Made by a program: the position numbers and the translations under genes. Below the pieces are notes generated by a model. The model saw only the letters and a list, made by a program, of their open reading frames with translations, ran no database searches and was not told the DNA's origin. From TPA_inf: Saccharomyces (Eukaryota), in the NCBI GenBank assembly GCA_000146045.2, contig BK006938.2:960001-1024000 (forward strand): 64,000 bases of DNA, written 5' to 3'. Within the stretch, counting starts at the first letter, position 1; each line of letters starts with the position of its first letter. Positions 11,808 through 55,702 of the stretch are shown piece by piece.

Positions 11808-14243
11808 TTACTTTTCAGCTTCCTCTTCAACAACTTCGCCTTCTTCATGATTTGGTAGCACGACAAGCTTAGTATCTTTAACCACCACTCTAACAGTTTC
11901 GCCGTTTCTAATTTGACCTTTTAATAAGAAAGTTGCCATGGAGTTCAAAATCTGTCTATGAATTAATCTATTCAATGGCCTTGCACCATATAATTGATCG
12001 TAGCCTTTGTCAGTTAGCCAATCCTTCGCTTCATCAGTTAAATCAATTTTCATTCTTTTTTCGGCCAAACGATCTTGAATTTCTGCAATTCTAATATCAA
12101 CAATTGACCTCAAAACTTTCTTGGATAGCCTATTGAAAACTAGAATATCATCAATACGATTGATGAACTCAGGTGGATAGGATCTTTTCATTGCTTCGAT
12201 AACTTTATTCTTGGTTGCGGTGTCAATCTTACCATCATCACCCAACTTTGTGTCGTTTAATAAAATATCTTGTCCAATGTTTGAGGTCATCACAATGATC
12301 GTGTTACGGAAATCAACATGATGGCCTAGGGAATCGGTCAGCTTACCTTCATCCAACACTTGCAACAGTAGTTTGGAAACATCGGGGTGCGCTTTTTCAA
12401 ATTCATCAAATAAAACGACAGCATAAGGCTTTCTTCTGACAGCCTCAGTTAATTGGCCACCAGATTCGCTTAAGACGTAACCTGGAGGTGCACCGATTAA
12501 ACGAGAGACAGTATGCTTCTCTTGAAATTCTGACATGTCAAAACGAATCACATTTGATTCGTCATCAAATAGGAATTCAGCTAAAGCCTTGGTCAATTCT
12601 GTTTTACCAGTACCAGTAGGACCTAAGAACATAAAGCTGGCAATAGGTCTCTTTTCACTGGTCAAACCAGCCCTTTGAAGACGTACAGCATCAGAAATAG
12701 CAGCAATGGCCTCGTCTTGGCCAACGACTCTTTCTTTTAAAGAATTTTCCATATACAGTAGGCGGTCCTTGTCGCCTTTCATCACCGTTTCTGTAGGAAT
12801 ACCAGTCATTTTGGCAACAACCTTAGAAATATCGTCAGAAGTAACTGAATCATGAAGTAAATTTACTTTATCTCCGTCCTTACTCTTCTCGCTTAAAGCT
12901 ACCTTCTTCTCCAAGTCAGGAATTCTGGAATATCGCAACTCGGATGCTTTAGTGTAATCACCCTCTCTCTGACACTTTTCCAACTCAATTCTTGCTTGTT
13001 CCAAATTTGCCTTAGCATTTTTGATAGATTCAATTTCAGCTCTTTCAGCGTCCCATATTTTTGTTAATCTGTTTAATTCATCATTTTTCATTTCTAGGTC
13101 CTTTTCCAACGCTTCTCTTCTTTCCACGGAAACAGGGTCGGTCTCTTTCTTTAAAGATTCCAGTTCTATTTGTATTTTCATAATAGCACGATCCAGTTTC
13201 TGTATTTCATCCGGTTTGGATTCATGTTGTAAACGTAGTACAGCACAAGCTTCGTCAACTAGATCAATGGCTTTATCAGGTAGAAACCTGTCTGTTATAT
13301 AACGATTTGAAAGAACTGCAGCAGACACTAAAGCTGTATCAGTGATCCTTACACCATGATGAACCTCGTACCTTTCTTTTAAACCTCTTAGTATAGAAAT
13401 CGTATCGGAGACGCTCGGCTCATTCAATAAGATAGGCTGAAACCTTCTCGATAAAGCCGGATCTTTTTCAATGATTTTGAATTCATCAAGAGTGGTTGCA
13501 GAGATACAACGTAGCCCACGGGCCAGTTTTGGCTTTAAGATGTTAGAAGCATCCATACTACCATCAGTTTTACCTAAGCCAAGCAGCATATGAACTTCAT
13601 CAATGAAAACAATAACCTTACCATTGGCCTTGTCAATTTCTTCTAAAACCTTTTTTAAACGTTCTTCGAATTCACCTCTATATTTGGCGCCAGCAATCAA
13701 AGATCCCAAATCCAAAGCTACTAGATCTTTATCTTTCAACGAGTCAGGGACCTCCCCAGCAACAATTCTTTGAGCTAACCCATCAATAAGGGCGGTTTTA
13801 CCGACACCAGCTCGACCGATCAAACATGGATTATTTTTTGTTCTTCTTGATAAAATTTGAATAGCTCTTGCGATTTCTTCGTCTCTGCCAATGACAGGGT
13901 CTAATTTACCGTCGCGCGCTAATTTTGTCAAGTTTGTACCAAATTGTTCTAAAGCTGGCTTTTCCGGTTGCTGATTGGGATCCATCCTCATTTGGACGTA
14001 CGTTCTTTTGAAATTGGGCAATCCATATGAGCTCTTGAGGGCGCAGGTTGAAATAGCGACTTCATTTAATGCATTTGTTTTTATATCTGATAGAAGTTTA
14101 TTGGCTACTCGAGGTCTTGCATTAAAACTGCAAATAGATCTTTTACACTGTACAATAGTGTATATTCGTGGAGTACTTCGCCTTAATAGTTGCGTTCTCT
14201 GTAAATATTTTTGTATTGGTGCTTTTGTAGCTTGTCTTAACAT
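11808..14243 (-). CDS. HSP78: Mitochondrial ClpB-family disaggregase HSP78 (YDR258C), 811 aa
   Basis: Two AAA+ modules with Walker A motifs (GRAGVGKT and GPTGTGKT). Coiled-coil middle domain. N-terminal basic/hydroxylated presequence. 811 aa. Confidence 0.95.
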
Positions 14244-27533: not shown

Positions 27534-30500
27534 TTAAATGTTTTTATCGGAAGAGGTTTTGTGTTTGTGCCATATTAATTGTTTATCTCTAGTGTCCCAC
27601 ATGAATTGTATTAACTCATATGTCATGTCTAAAACTTGCCTAGAGGGGAATAGTATATGTTGAGCAAGTGTGTTGATGTAGTATAGTAAGTCAAATCTAA
27701 ATTTATATCCAACATATGAAGCTAGACCAATCAACTTTTGCATTTCATGTACCTTCTCTTTGTATTCATCTTCATCTATTTCTAGTTCATCCTGGTCTAT
27801 ATAAAGACCTGGTTGACCTGGAGCGCTAAGTTTTCTTCCTTTTGGATTCAAAGGTACGTTTAATTTGGGTATTTTCTCAGTTAATGAGTTTTCCATACCT
27901 AATTTCATGTATTTACCTCTTTGATATTTGATTTCTAAGCCAAGTATGTCATATTGAATTTCCTCATCACTTTCGCCTAGATTTATAATCTTGGTGTCGT
28001 ATTGCATCTTAAGCTTCTCTATAATTCTTTTGTTTGAATTTAGATTTTTGCTAAACAATACCATATCATCTACGAATAAACAAATTGTCACTTGACTGTT
28101 TTTAAATACGCATGACCATCCACGAACTTCTTCCATACCACATTGTTGTATCAGGTATGATTTGATAGTTTCGTACCAGTTCGCTCCACTTTGTTTCAAT
28201 CCATAAAGTGATTTCTTCAAACGTATCAACTTATCATTCATTCCTAAATGTGGTGGAGGTCTTATGTATAATTCTTCTTTGATGTCTGCATACAAATATG
28301 CCGAAGATATGTCTAATTGTGTAATATAGTAGTTATTGTCTAATGCAAGTGACAGGGATGTCATTAATGCATAGTGATGTACGGTATTGGATTGCATGCC
28401 TGAGTCGTAAGTGTCAGGATGCTGAATATCACCTCTTGCAACAAATCTAGCTTTATGAGTACCGTCACGTTTCTTGTTGAAGATAAACATTGAGTTTATT
28501 ACTCTTTTAGGGTCTATTTCTTTTCTGTCATAATATTCGTCAGTGTCCCAAGTTTTCATCTTCAACAGTTGATTGACTTCTTTGTGGTATGCCTCGATAT
28601 ATTTTTCTTTTTCTTTAATATCTTTATTATAGGTGATTGCCTCATCGTATCGTAAGGTTGTCCGTATTGGTTTGATTGATTTTACTGCTTTTACAGCTGC
28701 AATCAGGTGAATTCGTTTCTTCGATCTCGGAGGTTCTAAACTACGCATATTCTTAGTATTCCATGTGTCTCGTGATACCTTAATTTCAGTTTCATTATCT
28801 TCTAATGATCTTTTCTTACTGTTGATAGTAGTATAGGCATTAGAGTCACCAATACCACCCAAACTGGAATTAGTTTGACGAGAATTTATCGGTGGGAGTT
28901 CTTTAAATGGGTCAGGGAATTCGGTAGGAGATTCTGGAGGTAGATCAGGGAGTGGGAGATCAGCGATGATAGATTCCTCGGTATTCTGTTCAGAAACAGT
29001 AGTTGGCGTTTTGATAGGAACAATATTGTGCGATGAATTATTTTCCGGTGGAGAAGCATCGATTGAAGGTGAACGGTGTATAATCCTTTTCTCAGTCTCT
29101 TGGTCACTTATCTGCGGAACAGTTTTGTTGTTGGTACCACCCGTACTGGATATTGGTACGTTTGTATGATTAGTCTCATTTTCACTGTACGAGTCTGAGT
29201 GTCTGAAATCTTTAGATTTACTGGCGTGCGACGACTCATGTGTGTTAGATTGGGACATGGGAGCAAGTAAAGGAACATTTAATTTATGCATACCACCCGA
29301 ACCGGTACTCTCGATATTGGAAATTTGGGGGGTGCTAGATCTCTTCTTTGATGGAAGAATATTAGATTCAGATATGTTGGGGTCAACTTCTCTGGGTGCG
29401 CGAATATTGGTTTTAGAAACACGTTTCGAATCTTCAGTATGAGTTGACGGAGGTGTGGAATCGGTTGGACTCACAGCTTTTGAAAGGACATTTCTCGGTT
29501 GCTCAGGATGTAGTTCAATGTCGGATTGGAAGTCATGGTCAGATTCTATGTTAAGATCATTGGATTCTTGGATCTCATTTGACGCAATGAACGAATGATA
29601 TGAAGCAGTTAAACGGTTTAAGTCTTCATCGAAAGTGAGTGCGTCGTAATTGAATTGATCTAATCTGGATTCCTTGCCCTGAAGAATAACATAGTTAGTT
29701 GTATCTACTGTCTTCTTTAAGGATGGAAGATAGATGATATATCCATAAGAGTTTCGAGACGGATGTAGAGCGTAGCCTGGGATGCCACGAGGATGTATTT
29801 TGGAGTTAGGGTTGTGATCATTGACGATAACAGGTTGACCGAAAGGTAACAAAGTACTGATATCAAGTCCTGCCAAGCCAGCATGTTGTCTTGCAGATTT
29901 TTTGCTTTTAGGTGAAGCTAGTGAATTTCTCACAATAGTAGAAAATTCGATTGCAGAGAACCATAAATGGTTCGGTAAACCACTACATTGCAGTTGAGTA
30001 CGGCAGTCATCTAATAAGGTACGGTTTAGCCGTTCAGCGACTCCATGTGCTCGGGAATCCGCTGTGGTTGTATAGCATGGAGTTATACCATTTTTTTCAA
30101 GGAATTTATGGAGAGTTCTGTTAGTATACTCAGAACCACGGTCCATTTGTATAACCAAGACACTGGCCTGAAACTGGTTTTTAATAAAAGCTAGTATCGT
30201 AGTAAAAACATCGAGGATAGAGTCCTCGCGACGGTCGTGTAATGGATAAACCCAACGGAATTTTGTTGTCTCATCAGTAAATGAGATGAAATAGGATGGT
30301 GCACTATTTGGTAGGTTGTGAACTGGACCAAATATGTCAGTATGTAGGTATTGAAAGGGTTCGTATGAATTTTGGTATTTTAGTCGTGAACCTTTGATAT
30401 GTCTGTGTTTGGTGCTTTTGCCGATTAAACAATCAGGACATTGATAGTCAATAGCACTAGACCAGTCGACATCTGATTCGTTAAAATACGTGATGGTGTT

Positions 30501-31046
30501 ATTTTTAAGTGAGTATCGAATTGTCTGTGCATTGGCATGCGCAAGCATTCGATGAATGAAAGGATAAGGATATTTGCGTGTACTTTCACTTGTATGGACA
30601 TTATTGATGGTGGGTACGGAGATATTTGATGGAAGCAAGTACTTTTTAGATACCCAGTAAAAGTCTCCATATTTTACGATAGGTGCAAGTACAGTGCCGT
30701 CAGACCGTTCTAAGACGTTTTTGGTAAAGCATGCTGTGATATCTACTGCAGCCAATTCATTCAAACTGAGTAAGTCATAGGCTATGTTAGGAGTGTGCAA
30801 TACCTTTATTGATGTTTTGGTGTTGTCCTGGAAGTGAAATTGTAGGTCACCAATAGCGTTAATTGGTATATTTCTTTTTTGAGCATCAACTACGTTTATG
30901 TCAGGATTAGATGATGCTGAGTGTATGTGATGAGCAGATCTTATAAGGGTTCGTGATGCTCCTGAATCGAGAAGGAGGTGTCCAGGGAGTTCATCATCAG
31001 AATGATTAGTATGATTTACTGTAGATTCAGTAAGTTTCTGGCCTAA
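27534..31046 (-). pseudogene. Ty1 TYB, truncated: an internal ~430-bp deletion removes the RNase H region and shifts the frame
   Basis: CTTAGGC frameshift heptamer at 31040-31046. The frame is open to a stop at 27534, ending ...[14 protein letters not shown]. The intact Ty2 copy continues ...[26 protein letters not shown]... for about 170 more residues. The TTG at 30800 used by the ORF track is not the real start. Confidence 0.8.
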
Positions 31047-33133: not shown

Positions 33134-33952
33134 ATGATATTCAATCTACCTGTTAGTGTGCTGCTTTATTTTTCTTTGATATGGGCAATGGAGCCTAGTT
33201 TCGTAAGAGGTAAGAACGTCGTCAACTTAATTACTTTCAAAGATTCAAATGGCAAGCTGCACAAGCGGTTAGCACCAGAGGAAATACCGCCCCGGCTACA
33301 TAATTCTCAAGTAAATTCTTATCCATTAGGATATAAGGGAATGCGTGACTTTTCAAGACCCGCAGTGAATTTAGATGATATTTTAGGGACACAGCAAAGA
33401 AAGCAGCAAGAGTTTTTGGCTGAATTGTCTCCTTTATCCTTAGAATCAAAGTTGTCATTAGTGAACGAGGTCCAAATATTTGCAAGCTATGTGCGAAATG
33501 ATGTTGAAACATATAACAAAGTAAGTGACCCCAACGAAGATTTGATTATTATTGCACCAACGAACAGGGCTGTCTCTCAGCTTACTTTAAAACCGTGGCA
33601 ATTTCCGAATAATATTGATAAGCTTGAAAGTGATGGTGCCACCGAGAAGGAACTTGATACGGCAATACAAGAGAATATCTCCAAATTTGTGAGATCTCAT
33701 ATTGTAGTGTACAATGATGATAAAAATTCCTACAAGAAGGTGAGTCCAGGATGTACGCTCCTGCAGAGTATTGACTTCACAGAAAGCAAGAAAAGCGATT
33801 CGGAAACTGGTGGTGATATTTTACTCAAAAAAGAAGGAGAAGTATATTATGTAGCTTCCTCCAGAGACGAGAAATTTCATGCCGTCGAGAGCATTGAAAA
33901 TGGAAGCAATGGTGTTATTTTGATGGTTGATTTCACCCTGGTGGGTCCTTAG
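33134..33952 (+). CDS. YDR262W, secretory-pathway protein of unknown function, 272 aa
   Basis: 272-aa ORF with an N-terminal hydrophobic signal-like segment (MIFNLPVSVLLYFSLIWA). Its position matches YDR262W. Confidence 0.65.
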   Translation: MIFNLPVSVLLYFSLIWAMEPSFVRGKNVVNLITFKDSNGKLHKRLAPEEIPPRLHNSQVNSYPLGYKGMRDFSRPAVNLDDILGTQQRKQQEFLAELSPLSLESKLSLVNEVQIFASYVRNDVETYNKVSDPNEDLIIIAPTNRAVSQLTLKPWQFPNNIDKLESDGATEKELDTAIQENISKFVRSHIVVYNDDKNSYKKVSPGCTLLQSIDFTESKKSDSETGGDILLKKEGEVYYVASSRDEKFHAVESIENGSNGVILMVDFTLVGP

Positions 33953-34241: not shown

Positions 34242-35534
34242 TTAGAAAATTGATGGTACGGTGCCTGAGATCGCTGCTGGTGAGGTCATATAAATAGAGG
34301 ATGCGTTTTTGTTATCAAGAGAATTCTCCCTCTCCGATAACACGTCCTGCGTATCCACTAGCGGTTGCTCCACTTTCTTATTGAATGAGTTGGATTCACC
34401 CCCAAGTAGACCTACTTTAAACAGCTTTCTTGCTTTTAATTTTCTTTCTCTATTAATAAGTTTAGAAGCCATATCTACAGGGTGCAACTCCCCTTTTGCT
34501 ATCATTTCATGAACTTTGTGATCAATATTTTTAGTATTAATGACATCTTTTCGTACCCCTGATCCCCTTTCAACAACGGAACCAATACATTTCATAATTT
34601 TAATAATTTCAGCGTGGGAATTTGTGACTGCTTTAGGAATATTATTTAAAGTTGTAATCTGATTTGATAGAGGACAAAACACTCTTTGGTATTGAAACGC
34701 ATAATTGGCGAACTCAACCTGCTGCTTGAACGCCTTACTGAAACAAAGTTTTTCTGTCCGTTCTATTTGTATAAGGATGTCTTTCATTTCAGAATACCGT
34801 TTCACAATCTTCATAGCAGTGACTACACCCACTTTCCAAATTCCGCTAGTGTAATCACACCCTGCTAAACAAACTAGATTACGAAATTGTTGTTCACTTA
34901 ATTCTCCTAGAGGGAAATTTTCAGGTAAAGCTGAAAAATCGTCTTTTGAGATTTCTAAAGCTTTTCCCTGATCATTTAACTTTGTTATGAGTGTTTTACA
35001 ACCAAAGACCAACAAATCAGAATCTTCTGATATGATACCCTGTATAAGGCCCATTTTTTCCAAGTAAACCATTTGCGGATCTGCTTCAAATGGTGCAACA
35101 ATGTAGGGAATTGAATGTAGTTTGCAATAATCAATAATACATTTCGCCATTTCTGGTGTGATGTCAACACTTTTTTGAAAATATTCCATTGCATTATATC
35201 TGTTGCCGGCTGACCACAATTTCTTTGCAATCATTTCGTTTTCTAACCTTTTCTTTCTTCTTCTAGTTTCTGTATGATTTTTCACAAAAAGGGAATCACC
35301 ATCAAAAACTATATATGGCTTGATCTTAAGGCGTTTTAGGAGTTGCAGCCTTTTAATGAAAAATTGCAAGTATTTGTTTGTTGGCTTATTCATCACAAGT
35401 TCAAAAGCACACGCACAAGAAGCCCTGTGTAGCCACGCATAACCATCAATGGCTAATGTTTGATACATGTATTTTTTCAGGGACACCTGTTTTTGAATTC
35501 TCTTTAATTGAGGCAGTAAGCCAGGTATTCCCAT
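34242..35534 (-). CDS. DIN7: XPG/Rad2-family mitochondrial nuclease DIN7 (YDR263C), 430 aa
   Basis: MGIPGLLPQLK XPG-N start. XPG-I region with acidic catalytic residues. EXO1-like. 430 aa. Confidence 0.85.
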   Translation of the reverse strand: MGIPGLLPQLKRIQKQVSLKKYMYQTLAIDGYAWLHRASCACAFELVMNKPTNKYLQFFIKRLQLLKRLKIKPYIVFDGDSLFVKNHTETRRRKKRLENEMIAKKLWSAGNRYNAMEYFQKSVDITPEMAKCIIDYCKLHSIPYIVAPFEADPQMVYLEKMGLIQGIISEDSDLLVFGCKTLITKLNDQGKALEISKDDFSALPENFPLGELSEQQFRNLVCLAGCDYTSGIWKVGVVTAMKIVKRYSEMKDILIQIERTEKLCFSKAFKQQVEFANYAFQYQRVFCPLSNQITTLNNIPKAVTNSHAEIIKIMKCIGSVVERGSGVRKDVINTKNIDHKVHEMIAKGELHPVDMASKLINRERKLKARKLFKVGLLGGESNSFNKKVEQPLVDTQDVLSERENSLDNKNASSIYMTSPAAISGTVPSIF

Positions 35535-51273: not shown

Positions 51274-52251
51274 TGTATAGCGGTAATGTTTATTAACTCT
51301 TTCGGCAAAGTGCGTTTGGGCTCGCAATGAACAGACACCACCATTGCTTCTTCTGCGCTTATTTGCCTTTGTTGTATATCTAGTTCTCAAAATGGAGTCA
51401 TTCATCAGTCGATGTGTGGGCGGAAATGACGTTCATCTAGCAATGGCACACTAGTTTTTACTCAACAATTCAAACTCAATGGAAAGCCAGGAAGTTAGCG
51501 CCGGGAAACTTCAGGACAATATAAAAACAGGACTAACGGAAGAAAATAATGTGGGCCTTTTTGAGCAACGCTGACGGTAAGTAGTTTCCTACGATCGTAC
51601 AATCCCGGAAAATTGTAGTGGTGCAAGAAGGGAAAAGAATGATGGCGAAAAATGCACGCGCGTAAATAATGATTTGTCGAGTCCTATTGACCACAAAACC
51701 CGCGGAAACCTAGTTAGCCCAAAAGGAAATGGATAGCATATGAAAAACGAAACGAAACGTCCTTTTGCACGGCAGAAAGAGCTTAGTAGGACCCGGGACA
51801 AATGCAAGTTAGATTCCTTGATTCCCGAATGCTCGGTCTTGCGTTTCGCCGTGGCTGCATGGAAGGTCATCGTACGGGTACGGGCAGTCTGGCTGAGTGG
51901 TGCCGCCAAAGTGCAATAGCTGTCAGTAGGGCGTGAGGAATGTAAAAGGCAAGAAAACATGTACGAGGGAAGAGAAGGGGGCAAAAGAAAGATAATAGGA
52001 ACGGTGTAGATGAACTAGAAAAGGTTCAAGAGATGATAAACGTGAAGGGAGTGTCATATCTACCGACATAAAGATAGAGATCTTTTTTTTTCCTTTATTT
52101 TTTTTTTTGATTTTTTTTTTTGATTTTCTTGATATTAGTTTTTAGAAGTCCTTTGACGGGGCAGCCGGAGAATATATACCAACGGCATTCTATTGTCTTT
52201 TTTTCTTCCTTCCTTGCCAGGCATCTGCATCCATTATTGCCTTTAGTTACA

Positions 52252-52959
52252 ATGTTTTTTTTCCCGAAGCTTAGAAAACTTATAGGTTCAACTGTGATCG
52301 ATCACGATACCAAGAACTCATCAGGAAAGGAAGAGATCATGTCAAATAGCCGATTAGCACTTGTTATTATCAACCACGCCTTTGATAAGGTACTATCTTT
52401 GACGTGGCACTGCGGGATATTATCCGAAATAAGATCAGGACTGATGTTAATGTTTGGCATTTTCCAGTTGATGTGCTCTTTGGGTGTCATCGTATTGCTG
52501 TTGCCTATTATCATACTGGACGCGATCGATCTATTCCTCTACATGTGCAGGTTGCTTGATTACGGTTGCAAGTTATTCCACTACAATAGATCATCATTAC
52601 CGGTGGCAGATGGAAAAGAAAAGACCAGTGGTCCCATAAGCGGAAAGGAGGAAATAGTTATTGATGAGGAGATAATTAATATGCTAAATGAATCCTCAGA
52701 ATCATTGATCAATCATACTACAGCTGGTCTGGAATATGATATTAGTTCAGGTAGTGTTAACAAAAGTAGGCGTTTGAATTCAACTAGTACAGTTACATTT
52801 GTGAAGCAGAATAAACTTGTTAATGAAAGGAGGGAAGACGCCTACTACGAGGAAGAGGATGATGATTTCCTATCAAATCCGAATTATGATAAGATATCAT
52901 TGATCGAAAAATCATTCACGAGTCGTTTTGAAGTGGCTTGTGAGCAGAAAGCTGCTTAA
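52252..52959 (+). CDS. BSC2: BSC2 (YDR275W), lipid-droplet/ER membrane protein, 235 aa
   Basis: The first ATG (MFFFPKLRKL...) gives 235 aa; the track ORF starts upstream at a non-ATG codon. Hydrophobic hairpin segments. Stop TAA at 52957. Confidence 0.75.
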   Translation: MFFFPKLRKLIGSTVIDHDTKNSSGKEEIMSNSRLALVIINHAFDKVLSLTWHCGILSEIRSGLMLMFGIFQLMCSLGVIVLLLPIIILDAIDLFLYMCRLLDYGCKLFHYNRSSLPVADGKEKTSGPISGKEEIVIDEEIINMLNESSESLINHTTAGLEYDISSGSVNKSRRLNSTSTVTFVKQNKLVNERREDAYYEEEDDDFLSNPNYDKISLIEKSFTSRFEVACEQKAA

Positions 52960-53475
52960 ATTGATAATCAAGGTCAAGGCAACGCAACGCCACTGCTAAG
53001 AACACTTATTGCTACAGAAAGGAAACTAAAAATAATTATAAGGCTAGAGAGAAATAAAAACAAAATAAGAGAGATAATATGGGTAAGGGTCTGCCACCCA
53101 TCTGATAAAAGGCTGTTCTATCTTTTGGAACTCTACAACACAGGTAAACGGATGATACTGGCTATATTTATATAGATAAACAAACTTGCAGGACAGATAG
53201 TTAAGCGTCTATATCATGTGTATTTTAAGCGAAGAAAAAAGTACAAAAATGATAAAAGGCAAAAAAGATGAGAAGTTTTTTTTGTGATAAAATTAATTAT
53301 TAAAAAATACACACGTAGTTAAAATTAACAGCGGGGGAGGAAACCTTAAGAGAAAGAGAAACAAAAAAAAAGAAAGGAAACAAATAAAAATGAGGGTGAC
53401 CCGAACATGTTGATACCGTTTCCTAATACTGCTTCCTTATTTCATTTGATAGTTACTTTCGTTTATTGAATGAGC

Positions 53476-53643
53476 TTAATCTTGTAGGACAATGTACAAG
53501 GCATATAGCATACCTGGGAACCAAGCCAAAATGGTCAAAATGATATCCACTATACAGTCAGTACCCCACCCACGGGCTAGAAAAACGGCGACTGGTGGTA
53601 AGAAAAGGGATAATATAATGTTAATGATCTTGGCAGAATCCAT
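53476..53643 (-). CDS. PMP3: Plasma-membrane proteolipid PMP3 (YDR276C), 55 aa
   Basis: Translated by hand as MDSAKIINIILSLFLPPVAVFLARGWGTDCIVDIILTILAWFPGMLYALYIVLQD*. Absent from the ORF track because it is under 60 aa. Two TM helices. Confidence 0.85.
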   Translation of the reverse strand: MDSAKIINIILSLFLPPVAVFLARGWGTDCIVDIILTILAWFPGMLYALYIVLQD

Positions 53644-54400
53644 TGTTGTATTGTGCTGTGCTGTTTAGTTCAAAATGTATAATCAATTGTATTATACTGG
53701 CGAAAAACAACAACCGATAGTAAATTTTCTTCTTTTTTTCCTTTCCCTCTTCCAAAACAAAAACACTCACTTCCTCTTTTGTATTTATAGAGGCGCCCAT
53801 CGCAAAATAACCAGGACCCCCTTTTGAGGGCGTGGTTAAAGGGCACCCAGAGCCCACACCCATTGCATCTTCCGCTATTAGGGGACTGCGGAAGTGAGGG
53901 GAGCAGTAAATAGTGATCTTTGTAATTTTCTGCAAAATCCCTCTCGCTGTCTCGGGTTTTTCGATTCAGAGGACCTTCCCCCCCCCATGTTCCGAGATCG
54001 GTTTTGGTGGTTAGAAGGCCGGAGGAAAGACATTTACCGCTTGCGCGCGGCTTCTTCTGTATGCTGTGCTCAACTACCAAGAGAAGGATTACGCGCACGG
54101 ATACGTTGGATGTCTGCGATTGGTGATGCTAAGAACTAAAGGTATTTCGTCATCGTATGGTTTGATCTTCGCTACCCTTGACTCTTTACTGCGATAACGG
54201 TACCACGTTCCCATAAAATTCTTATTACTAAATCTCTATAAAGCTGCAACAGCTAGTTTGTATATATAAATCATTGGCGCTTCTTCCTCAATTCCTTGGG
54301 AATTTGGAGCTCCTCTATTAAAACTGATGTCCATGGGATAGTATTGATACAATCGAAGAGTCTCCAAAAAAACCATCGGGAAGGTTTCTTTTTAGTATCT

Positions 54401-55702
54401 TCAGGATACTGAATCCGGCTGCCAATCCAATCCTAATCTTTGGTAAACTTGTGCCTGACATTGCGACCATATCGTAGCCTTTTCTTCTTTAGATAAGCTG
54501 ACTTTGTTTTTTCCCTGTTGATTTGTTGCGGCGCTTGATCTCATCATCAATTCATCAAGGTTATTATTGGGGTTTTTCAACTGAATGTTCTTCAATAAAG
54601 CCTTTTTCAGAAGCGATTTTGTTTCTGTGCTGTTTTTCCGCGGTATTATGCTTGGTGGGGGCATGTCCGGTCTTTTTAAGTTGGACTGTTGTAACTTCCA
54701 TTTCTTATATTCGGAGCATCTTTGTTTGAAATCAAACCTGCATTGTGCCTCTACTGCTATATTTAAGAGGTAATTTTCGATGATATTTCTCCATTCCGGT
54801 TTCGACAAATTCATGACGGCTTCATTTCTACCAGTTATATGCTCATGTCTTTTTCTAGCGGTCGCTACTGTATATTTGGCGCTGGTTAGTTTGAATTCAT
54901 AATCTAAGTTAGCCTCCATGTACAGATCCGAATGGACTAACGTTGCGATTATGGTCTCATCGCTAGAATATAGTGGTAATAATTGTAACCTAAACTGGGG
55001 CATATTATCACCCACCGTTATTACTTCCGGTAGTTGATTACCCCATTCGGGCCTTAACTTCTCGACTATCAATAACGATCTTATATCGTTTAAATCCCAA
55101 TCCAATAACTCTCTCTTGGTAAACTTGGGACGCCCGTTACAGAGAATGTTGGATGGGTCTGCTAATAGAATATCTGGCGAATACATGTCATAAAACGTTT
55201 TGGGTAATGCTTCATCCAGGCTCACTCTCGTGATTAACTTGTGGTTAGGAAATTCGGAGAACGAAGAGTCATTAGTTAGTTGCGTGTGCACAGTAGAGGG
55301 GGCAGAAAATATACTTGATTGATAAGACGAGGCATTATCCGAAAGTAAACTCCCACTTTCAGCCACGCTTGATCTCCTGCTCGCTGAATGCATACTGCTT
55401 GAATGATGTGACCTTCTGCTAGGTGAGGAGGCCAATAATCTTTTTTTAATCTCATCTCTAGCTCTATCAGTGTACTCCGGAGGAGCATTCACAAAGTTCT
55501 CTCTTCTCGAAGAAGTCGTGGATTGAGAGCTACTCATTGATAGTGGCAAACTTTGAAAAGAAGCATTATCACTGCCACTCATCGTGTTTTCCGGAATGGC
55601 CTGTAGGGAGCTTGCAAACCCATGATTACTGTTAGTCGATTCTAATGGACGTCGTTGTAAAACTTGGTTTTTCGAAGTTGCTGGTGGTGGTGAAACAAAC
55701 AT
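54401..55702 (-). CDS. MTH1: Glucose-signalling regulator MTH1 (YDR277C), 433 aa
   Basis: 433 aa. S-rich N-terminal half, conserved C-terminal Mth1/Std1 domain. Very long 5' intergenic region. Confidence 0.85.

Follow-up and report, generated by a model that had tools for sequence, protein, structure and literature searches.

A 71-codon stop-free frame behind the BSC2 stop codon is probably a young chance opening in a yeast 3′ untranslated region

In Saccharomyces cerevisiae, the stop codon of BSC2 (YDR275W) is followed in the same frame by 71 sense codons before another stop is reached. We consider this most likely (probability about 0.75) to be a young open frame that arose by chance in the BSC2 3′ UTR, lying behind an efficient UAA, translated at no more than a basal level and closed by a TAG belonging to a conserved 3′-end signal. 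According to this interpretation, the BSC2 3′ UTR in the S. cerevisiae/S. paradoxus lineage would by chance have been left without stops in the frame of the gene. Ribosomes would terminate efficiently at the UAA, with only rare basal readthrough continuing beyond it, and in those rare events the UAA would be decoded as Gln, Lys or Tyr, giving the junction AA-(Q/K/Y)-IDNQGQGNATPLLR. The readthrough product would be 307 aa long and would end in a basic, I/L-rich tail without any selected function. The TAG, in turn, would end the frame only as part of a conserved TATATA block, which is most likely a 3′-end formation signal kept for reasons unrelated to the frame.

Since the frame is restricted to a single lineage, carries no coding signature and lies behind a strong stop, the name BSC2 (for Bypass of Stop Codon) should not be taken as evidence of programmed readthrough, and the value of the present check is mostly negative. 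Were the extension nevertheless translated to some use, it would imply both stop bypass at a site where, by every known rule, termination should be efficient and a second isoform of a lipid-droplet regulator.

The BSC2 locus and the length of its downstream frame

The window is the whole 64,000-nucleotide stretch of DNA that was analyzed (contig BK006938.2, positions 960,001 to 1,024,000 of the forward strand), and all coordinates below are positions within it. The features that define the locus are the following:

52252–52959, + strand: BSC2/TLD1 (YDR275W) coding sequence (CDS), read as an ORF from the ATG at 52252 (235 aa plus TAA)
52957–52959, + strand: BSC2 stop codon TAA in the context GCT-TAA-ATT-GAT (sequence reading and alignment)
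52960–53172, + strand: 71-codon stop-free in-frame extension (codon count), presumed BSC2 3′ UTR
53173–53175, + strand: first downstream in-frame stop, TAG, within an invariant TATATAG
53476–53643, − strand: PMP3 (YDR276C), a 55-aa ORF matching Pfam PF01679 (Pmp3) at the syntenic position
54401–55702, − strand: MTH1, beyond PMP3

Protein identity, ortholog names, synteny and the literature all assign the locus to YDR275W/BSC2. In a protein database comparison, the ORF product was 100% identical to S. cerevisiae proteins, and its orthologs in S. paradoxus and S. eubayanus are entered as "triglyceride-associated lipolysis regulator TLD1," the name Bsc2p also being in use. The order BSC2-PMP3-MTH1 was found again in S. 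paradoxus, S. mikatae, S. kudriavzevii and S. eubayanus, and YDR275W/BSC2 has been listed as adjoining YDR276C/PMP3 (PMC2682701). PMP3 is convergent with BSC2, with its 3′ end facing a common intergenic region of 516 bp. The YDR275W/Bsc2 protein is Tld1, a lipid-droplet regulator of triglyceride lipolysis, and its C-terminal low-complexity region is dispensable for the lipolysis function; the aim of the authors who renamed the gene TLD1 was to prevent confusion with Bscl2/seipin, a reason other than readthrough (PMC10609110).

The 71-codon open frame is a real observation. An earlier note on this DNA had placed it at 52960–53172 with a closing TAG at 53173–53175, and on recount these coordinates and the number of codons were exact; no in-frame stop occurs just after 52959, the next one being the TAG itself. 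The extension encodes IDNQGQGNATPLLRTLIATERKLKIIIRLERNKNKIREIIWVRVCHPSDKRLFYLLELYNTGKRMILAIFI, a peptide whose description in that note as a basic, K/R/I-rich tail was likewise correct, with 14 K+R against 6 D+E residues, a net charge of +8, a pI of 10.4, 11 isoleucines and 10 leucines. The two alternative frames of this span contain 10 and 6 stops. We found TAA-ATTGAT and the same 71 codons in 11/11 independent S. cerevisiae assemblies, with one difference that is silent in frame 0, although these assemblies were picked by their identical or nearly identical Bsc2 protein and therefore under-sample the diversity of the species.

To place the length of the run on a quantitative footing, we calculated the probability of a stop-free stretch of at least 71 codons. 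With the intergenic composition, each codon has a 0.086 chance of being a stop, which gives a mean run of ~12 codons and a P of 0.0017; shuffles gave 0.0015. Even the extension's own composition gave P ~0.004 by arithmetic, and we therefore rejected low T content as the cause of the stop-free frame. For a single gene, the run is thus unusual, as had been claimed (P ~0.15–0.4%), but the accompanying expectation of a stop every 15–25 codons in yeast 3′ UTRs was somewhat too long: the mean is ~12 codons, and the median stop-free run after the stop of 32 long ORFs in this window is 10. Genome-wide, the geometric mean of the downstream extension is 9.75 (PMC4494051).

Downstream of four other long ORFs in the window (11808–14243, − strand; 33134–33952, + strand; 27534–30548, − strand; and 34242–35534, − strand), the frame stays open for 59, 58, 49 and 40 codons, so that the observed tail of the distribution is fatter than the model and long open 3′ frames are locally not rare. 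Chance would be expected to produce between ten and several tens of runs of this length among the ~6000 genes of yeast. The 71-codon run therefore lies in the upper tail for one gene and is not beyond chance for the genome.

Evolution of the frame across Saccharomyces

The earlier note had proposed checking whether the sensu stricto species conserve the extension frame. When this was carried out, S. paradoxus was the one species besides S. cerevisiae in which the frame was open, and it was broken in three of the four other species. In S. paradoxus, the stop reads TAA-G and is followed by 69 open codons ending at the same TATATAG; a single indel separates the two extensions, and its length of 6 nt keeps the frame. 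In S. mikatae, TGA is followed by an in-frame stop after 21 codons, which is the only one in ~75 codons, and the sequence ends at the position equivalent to the TAG. In S. kudriavzevii (two strains) and S. eubayanus, TGA is followed by a stop after 11 and 10 codons, respectively. Alignment to S. cerevisiae revealed gaps of 1, 2, 4, 5, 8 and 13 nt in the extensions of these three more distant species; those of S. mikatae, for example, measure 4, 2, 1, 8 and 5 nt, none of them a multiple of three.

All five Saccharomyces proteins end at the same ...CEQKAA position with their stop codons aligned, and the position of the annotated stop is therefore ancient. The frame downstream of it is closed in the three outgroups, which makes the open state derived rather than ancestral. 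In neutral simulations with the observed number of substitutions, 33–40% of copies of the S. cerevisiae extension stayed open, so that finding the frame open in S. paradoxus is uninformative.

We then looked for a coding signature in the two species that keep the frame. The extension differs between S. cerevisiae and S. paradoxus at 35 of 207 sites, and these differences are spread uniformly over the three codon positions (13/10/12; p=0.82), while those in the BSC2 CDS concentrate at the third (16/15/58; p=1.5e-9); the two distributions differ from one another (p=0.007). The extension's dN/dS was 0.52 in frame 0 and 0.53 in frame 1, which served as the out-of-frame control, compared with 0.60–0.95 for non-coding DNA beyond the TAG and 0.11 for the BSC2 CDS. 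Codon usage told the same story: using log-odds trained on 23 genes of the window, the extension scored 0.035 bits/codon, compared to 0.097–0.312 for real genes and 0.155 for BSC2, and 27.5% of random intergenic windows scored at least as high. No Pfam match was obtained for the 71-aa peptide. The extension thus evolves like the non-coding DNA next to it, with indels of any length, as is expected of an ordinary yeast 3′ UTR, and the conserved coding pattern of programmed readthrough is absent from it, given the uniform codon positions, a dN/dS equal to the control and stops or indels in three of four species.

In the same codon-usage analysis, frame +2 of the extension (52960–53172) scored 0.223 bits/codon, above the 0.035 of frame 0. 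Since frame +2 carries 6 stops, this higher score is most likely an effect of composition.

Two kinds of known C-terminal extension invite comparison. As in the conserved readthrough extensions of Drosophila and Anopheles (PhyloCSF-type signatures; Jungreis et al.) or those conserved between S. cerevisiae and S. paradoxus (Artieri & Fraser 2014), the downstream stop of BSC2 is kept at the same place in the two yeast species, and no indel between them shifts the frame; BSC2 differs, however, in lacking a pattern of purifying selection and in having the frame broken in three more species. Artieri and Fraser note that the work of Jungreis et al. 2011 yielded no conserved candidates for readthrough in yeasts (PMC3941106). 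Extensions that arose de novo by stop loss (Andreatta et al. 2015, PMC4494051) share with BSC2 a long open 3′ UTR frame as raw material, and the longest fixed addition in that study, at 70 aa, is close to the 71 of BSC2. In contrast to those cases, BSC2 has kept its stop, the loss of which was seen in none of the 11 S. cerevisiae assemblies or the five species.

Stop-codon context and the evidence for bypass

The context of the BSC2 stop, GCU-UAA-AUU-GAU, favors termination at every determinant tested, namely, the P-site codon GCU, the U at −1, the UAA itself, the purine at +4 and the U at +9. A U at −1 or +9 is known to inhibit readthrough and a C at +4 to be permissive, while a purine at +4 stacks on 18S rRNA and assists eRF1 (PMC8087045). 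The earlier note had correctly recorded A as the base after the stop and drawn no comment on strength; TAA-A is a strong termination signal rather than a leaky one (PMC8087045). Neither form of leaky signal, i.e., UGA or UAG with C at +4, or a stop followed by CAR-NBA or CAR-YYA, is found at BSC2, where the stop is followed by AUUGAU, a hexamer that does not match CAR-NBA (consensus from PMC4446449, PMC4973966). BSC2 therefore resembles cases of programmed readthrough (the TMV-type stop-CAR-NBA/CAR-YYA and, in yeast, PDE2 with CAA-GAA and BSC4 with CAA-CUA) in having an in-frame ORF after the stop and a proposed C-terminally extended protein, but it differs from them in that UAA-AUU-GAU has no CAR at +4 to +6 and no A at +9, and in that the tightest stop follows GCU. 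We also searched for a stimulatory RNA structure downstream of the stop (52945–53075), and none was detected: its minimum free energy of −10.5 kcal/mol is weaker than the average of −13.8 for shuffled sequences (z=+1.17), of which 181 of 200 folded at least as well. Between the closed frames of the related species and these context tests, the meaningful 71-aa readthrough tail that the earlier note implied finds no support.

The identity of the stop codon itself varies among the species: S. cerevisiae and S. paradoxus have TAA, but S. mikatae, S. kudriavzevii and S. eubayanus have TGA, the leakiest stop. The lineage that has no back-up stops nearby is thus the one with the tightest stop. Such a TGA-to-TAA pattern would fit selection against readthrough where no back-up stop is at hand, or drift, and would be the opposite of selection for leakiness.

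The 71-codon frame is the defining feature of BSC2 that was already published in 2003, and it is rediscovered here rather than new. That study, by Namy and colleagues, is said to have covered 58 ORF pairs, of which eight showed 3–25% bypass, with poly(A) mRNA for each. As later papers summarize it, the BSC genes take their name from a computational search for ORFs followed by a second, stop-separated ORF (Namy et al. 2003, in PMC10968208, PMC5559586, PMC4973966). Reporter assays followed, in which, by these summaries, eight genes, those named BSC among them, had raised stop-codon bypass (PMC5559586, PMC4973966), at a level put at >10-fold in one of them (PMC5559586). The connection that had been made between the open frame and the name "Bypass of Stop Codon" agrees with these secondary accounts of the screen. 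BSC2 has the layout of the BSC/SORF class (a 235-aa ORF, TAA, 71 sense codons and TAG); here the likeness is that of BSC2 to itself, the arrangement of two ORFs and one stop being confirmed to the base and showing no difference. Within the set of eight, the summaries name only IMP3 and BSC4 as showing eRF3/[PSI+]-dependent readthrough (PMC5559586, PMC4973966). The published reporter bypass of BSC2, which is not known to depend on eRF3, is the sole evidence for a real extended isoform. A literature text search for BSC2 together with readthrough returned no relevant match.

We weighed this reporter result against the sequence evidence in considering whether the bypass is genuine and functional. 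In that case, readthrough would be independent of eRF3 level and would produce a 307-aa Tld1 isoform, found only in S. cerevisiae and S. paradoxus and evolutionarily young, whose tail alters stability or lipid-droplet targeting. We regard this as unlikely. The 2003 reporter bypass, as summarized later (PMC5559586, PMC10968208), is direct, if context-limited, evidence in its favor and is not overturned by sequence analysis. The openness of the frame in both S. cerevisiae and S. paradoxus, with an indel that keeps it, and its invariance in the 11 S. cerevisiae assemblies are also consistent with function, and functional yeast extensions need no sequence conservation, those of IMP3 and PDE2 acting to destabilize the protein (PMC3941106). 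Set against these points are a context that favors termination at each tested position, with neither CAR-NBA nor downstream structure, the lack of any codon-position or dN/dS signal even between the two frame-keeping species and the switch of the stop from TGA to TAA in the very lineage that keeps the frame. Furthermore, BSC2/YDR275W is missing from a compilation of 165 yeast readthrough candidates drawn from the profiling of Dunn 2013 and Artieri & Fraser 2014 (PMC4999894 supplements), an absence that counts for little if the gene is poorly covered. Finally, we infer that a [PSI+]-independent reporter signal can be an artefact, arising from cryptic initiation or from promoter activity in the insert.

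A more specific form of the same proposal, which we consider very unlikely, is that the 2003 bypass is real and eRF3-independent and yields a minor Tld1 isoform with a newborn 71-aa tail in S. cerevisiae and S. paradoxus, i.e., the de novo birth of a C-terminus. If true, it would represent an unconventional bypass at a strong UAA, and the tail might change lipid-droplet association or protein turnover.

Conserved sequence at the end of the frame

Two further features lie around the TAG that closes the open frame:

53149–53238, no strand assigned: conserved non-coding block covering the end of the extension, its TAG and a further ~60 nt downstream
53169–53174, same on both strands: TATATA, the only copy in the 516-bp intergenic region, invariant in five species (motif scan and alignment)

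Within the block, 63–77% of alignment columns are invariant in the five species, compared to 10–47% in 52960–53148, and the identity between S. cerevisiae and S. paradoxus is 94%, compared to 82%. Conservation in the intergenic region is lowest over the first ~190 nt of the extension (52960–53148), whereas a coding extension would be expected to show the opposite pattern. The TATATA, which is followed by A-rich tracts at 53232–53240, matches the established consensus of yeast 3′-end formation signals. Judging from this consensus, it is probably the polyadenylation efficiency element of BSC2 and possibly that of the convergent PMP3 as well; together with the A-rich tracts, it suggests that cleavage occurs beyond 53175, which would leave the whole extension inside the mRNA.

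A second conserved block, at 53283–53310, reads TTGTGATAAAATTAATTATTAAAAAATACACACGTAGTTAAA. Across the two blocks, 63–83% of columns are invariant, far more than in the remainder of the region and similar to the 70–90% in the last 60 nt of the BSC2 CDS, and both are probably signals for 3′-end formation or termination shared by the two convergent genes.

We next considered whether the stop-free frame could itself be the side effect of constraint at the RNA or DNA level, imposed by a 3′ UTR regulatory element or a bidirectional terminator, which we judge distinctly unlikely. The conserved block does cover the last ~8 codons and the TAG, with the second block lying further downstream, and termination is needed here both for the convergent, heavily transcribed PMP3, which receives MTH1 read-through transcription, and for the MTH1-PMP3 read-through transcripts (PMC3258148). 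However, only the last ~24 nt of the 213-nt extension fall within the block, and the poorly conserved first ~190 nt lie outside it, so that constraint cannot explain the missing stops there and accounts for those last ~24 nt only. Neither an Rfam match nor significant structure was found, the scan of 52800–53700 against Rfam giving only sub-threshold chance matches.

An inverted repeat surrounds the TAG (53169–53219) and reads TATATAGAT(A)...(G)TCTATATCA. In a consensus fold of the conserved block, a weak hairpin formed around TATATAGAT...ATCTATA, with two compensatory pairs in its inner stem. A structured RNA in the block was nevertheless rejected, given that single-sequence folds of the two strands were no better than shuffles (z=+1.0 and +0.66). 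A replication origin as the cause of the conserved blocks was likewise rejected after a scan of the intergenic region for the ARS consensus, which gave no match at one mismatch or fewer.

The proposal that a longer ancestral BSC2 ORF was cut by a nonsense mutation, or that the reference contains a sequencing error, would account for the classic signature of two ORFs split by a single stop but is hardly credible and was rejected, since the five orthologs share the ...CEQKAA terminus with an aligned stop (TAA or TGA), the frame is closed in the three outgroups, the TAA is present in 11 independent S. cerevisiae assemblies and the extension has neither a Pfam match nor a coding signature.

Two further versions of the Bsc2 protein were encountered in the databases. 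The first, of 279 aa (P0001, in a cluster of 105 members; 52120–52959 in the window), uses a TTG start 132 nt upstream of the ATG; it is an artefact produced when yeast contigs are subjected to bacterial-style gene calling, not a real N-terminal extension. The second, of 205 aa (P0003; L018, 1201–1818), is annotated in one S. cerevisiae assembly, starts at Met30 and has divergent residues at ~97–110, a patch that resembles compensating frameshifts and probably reflects assembly errors. The 3′ extension in the assembly that encodes this 205-aa version is identical to that of the window.
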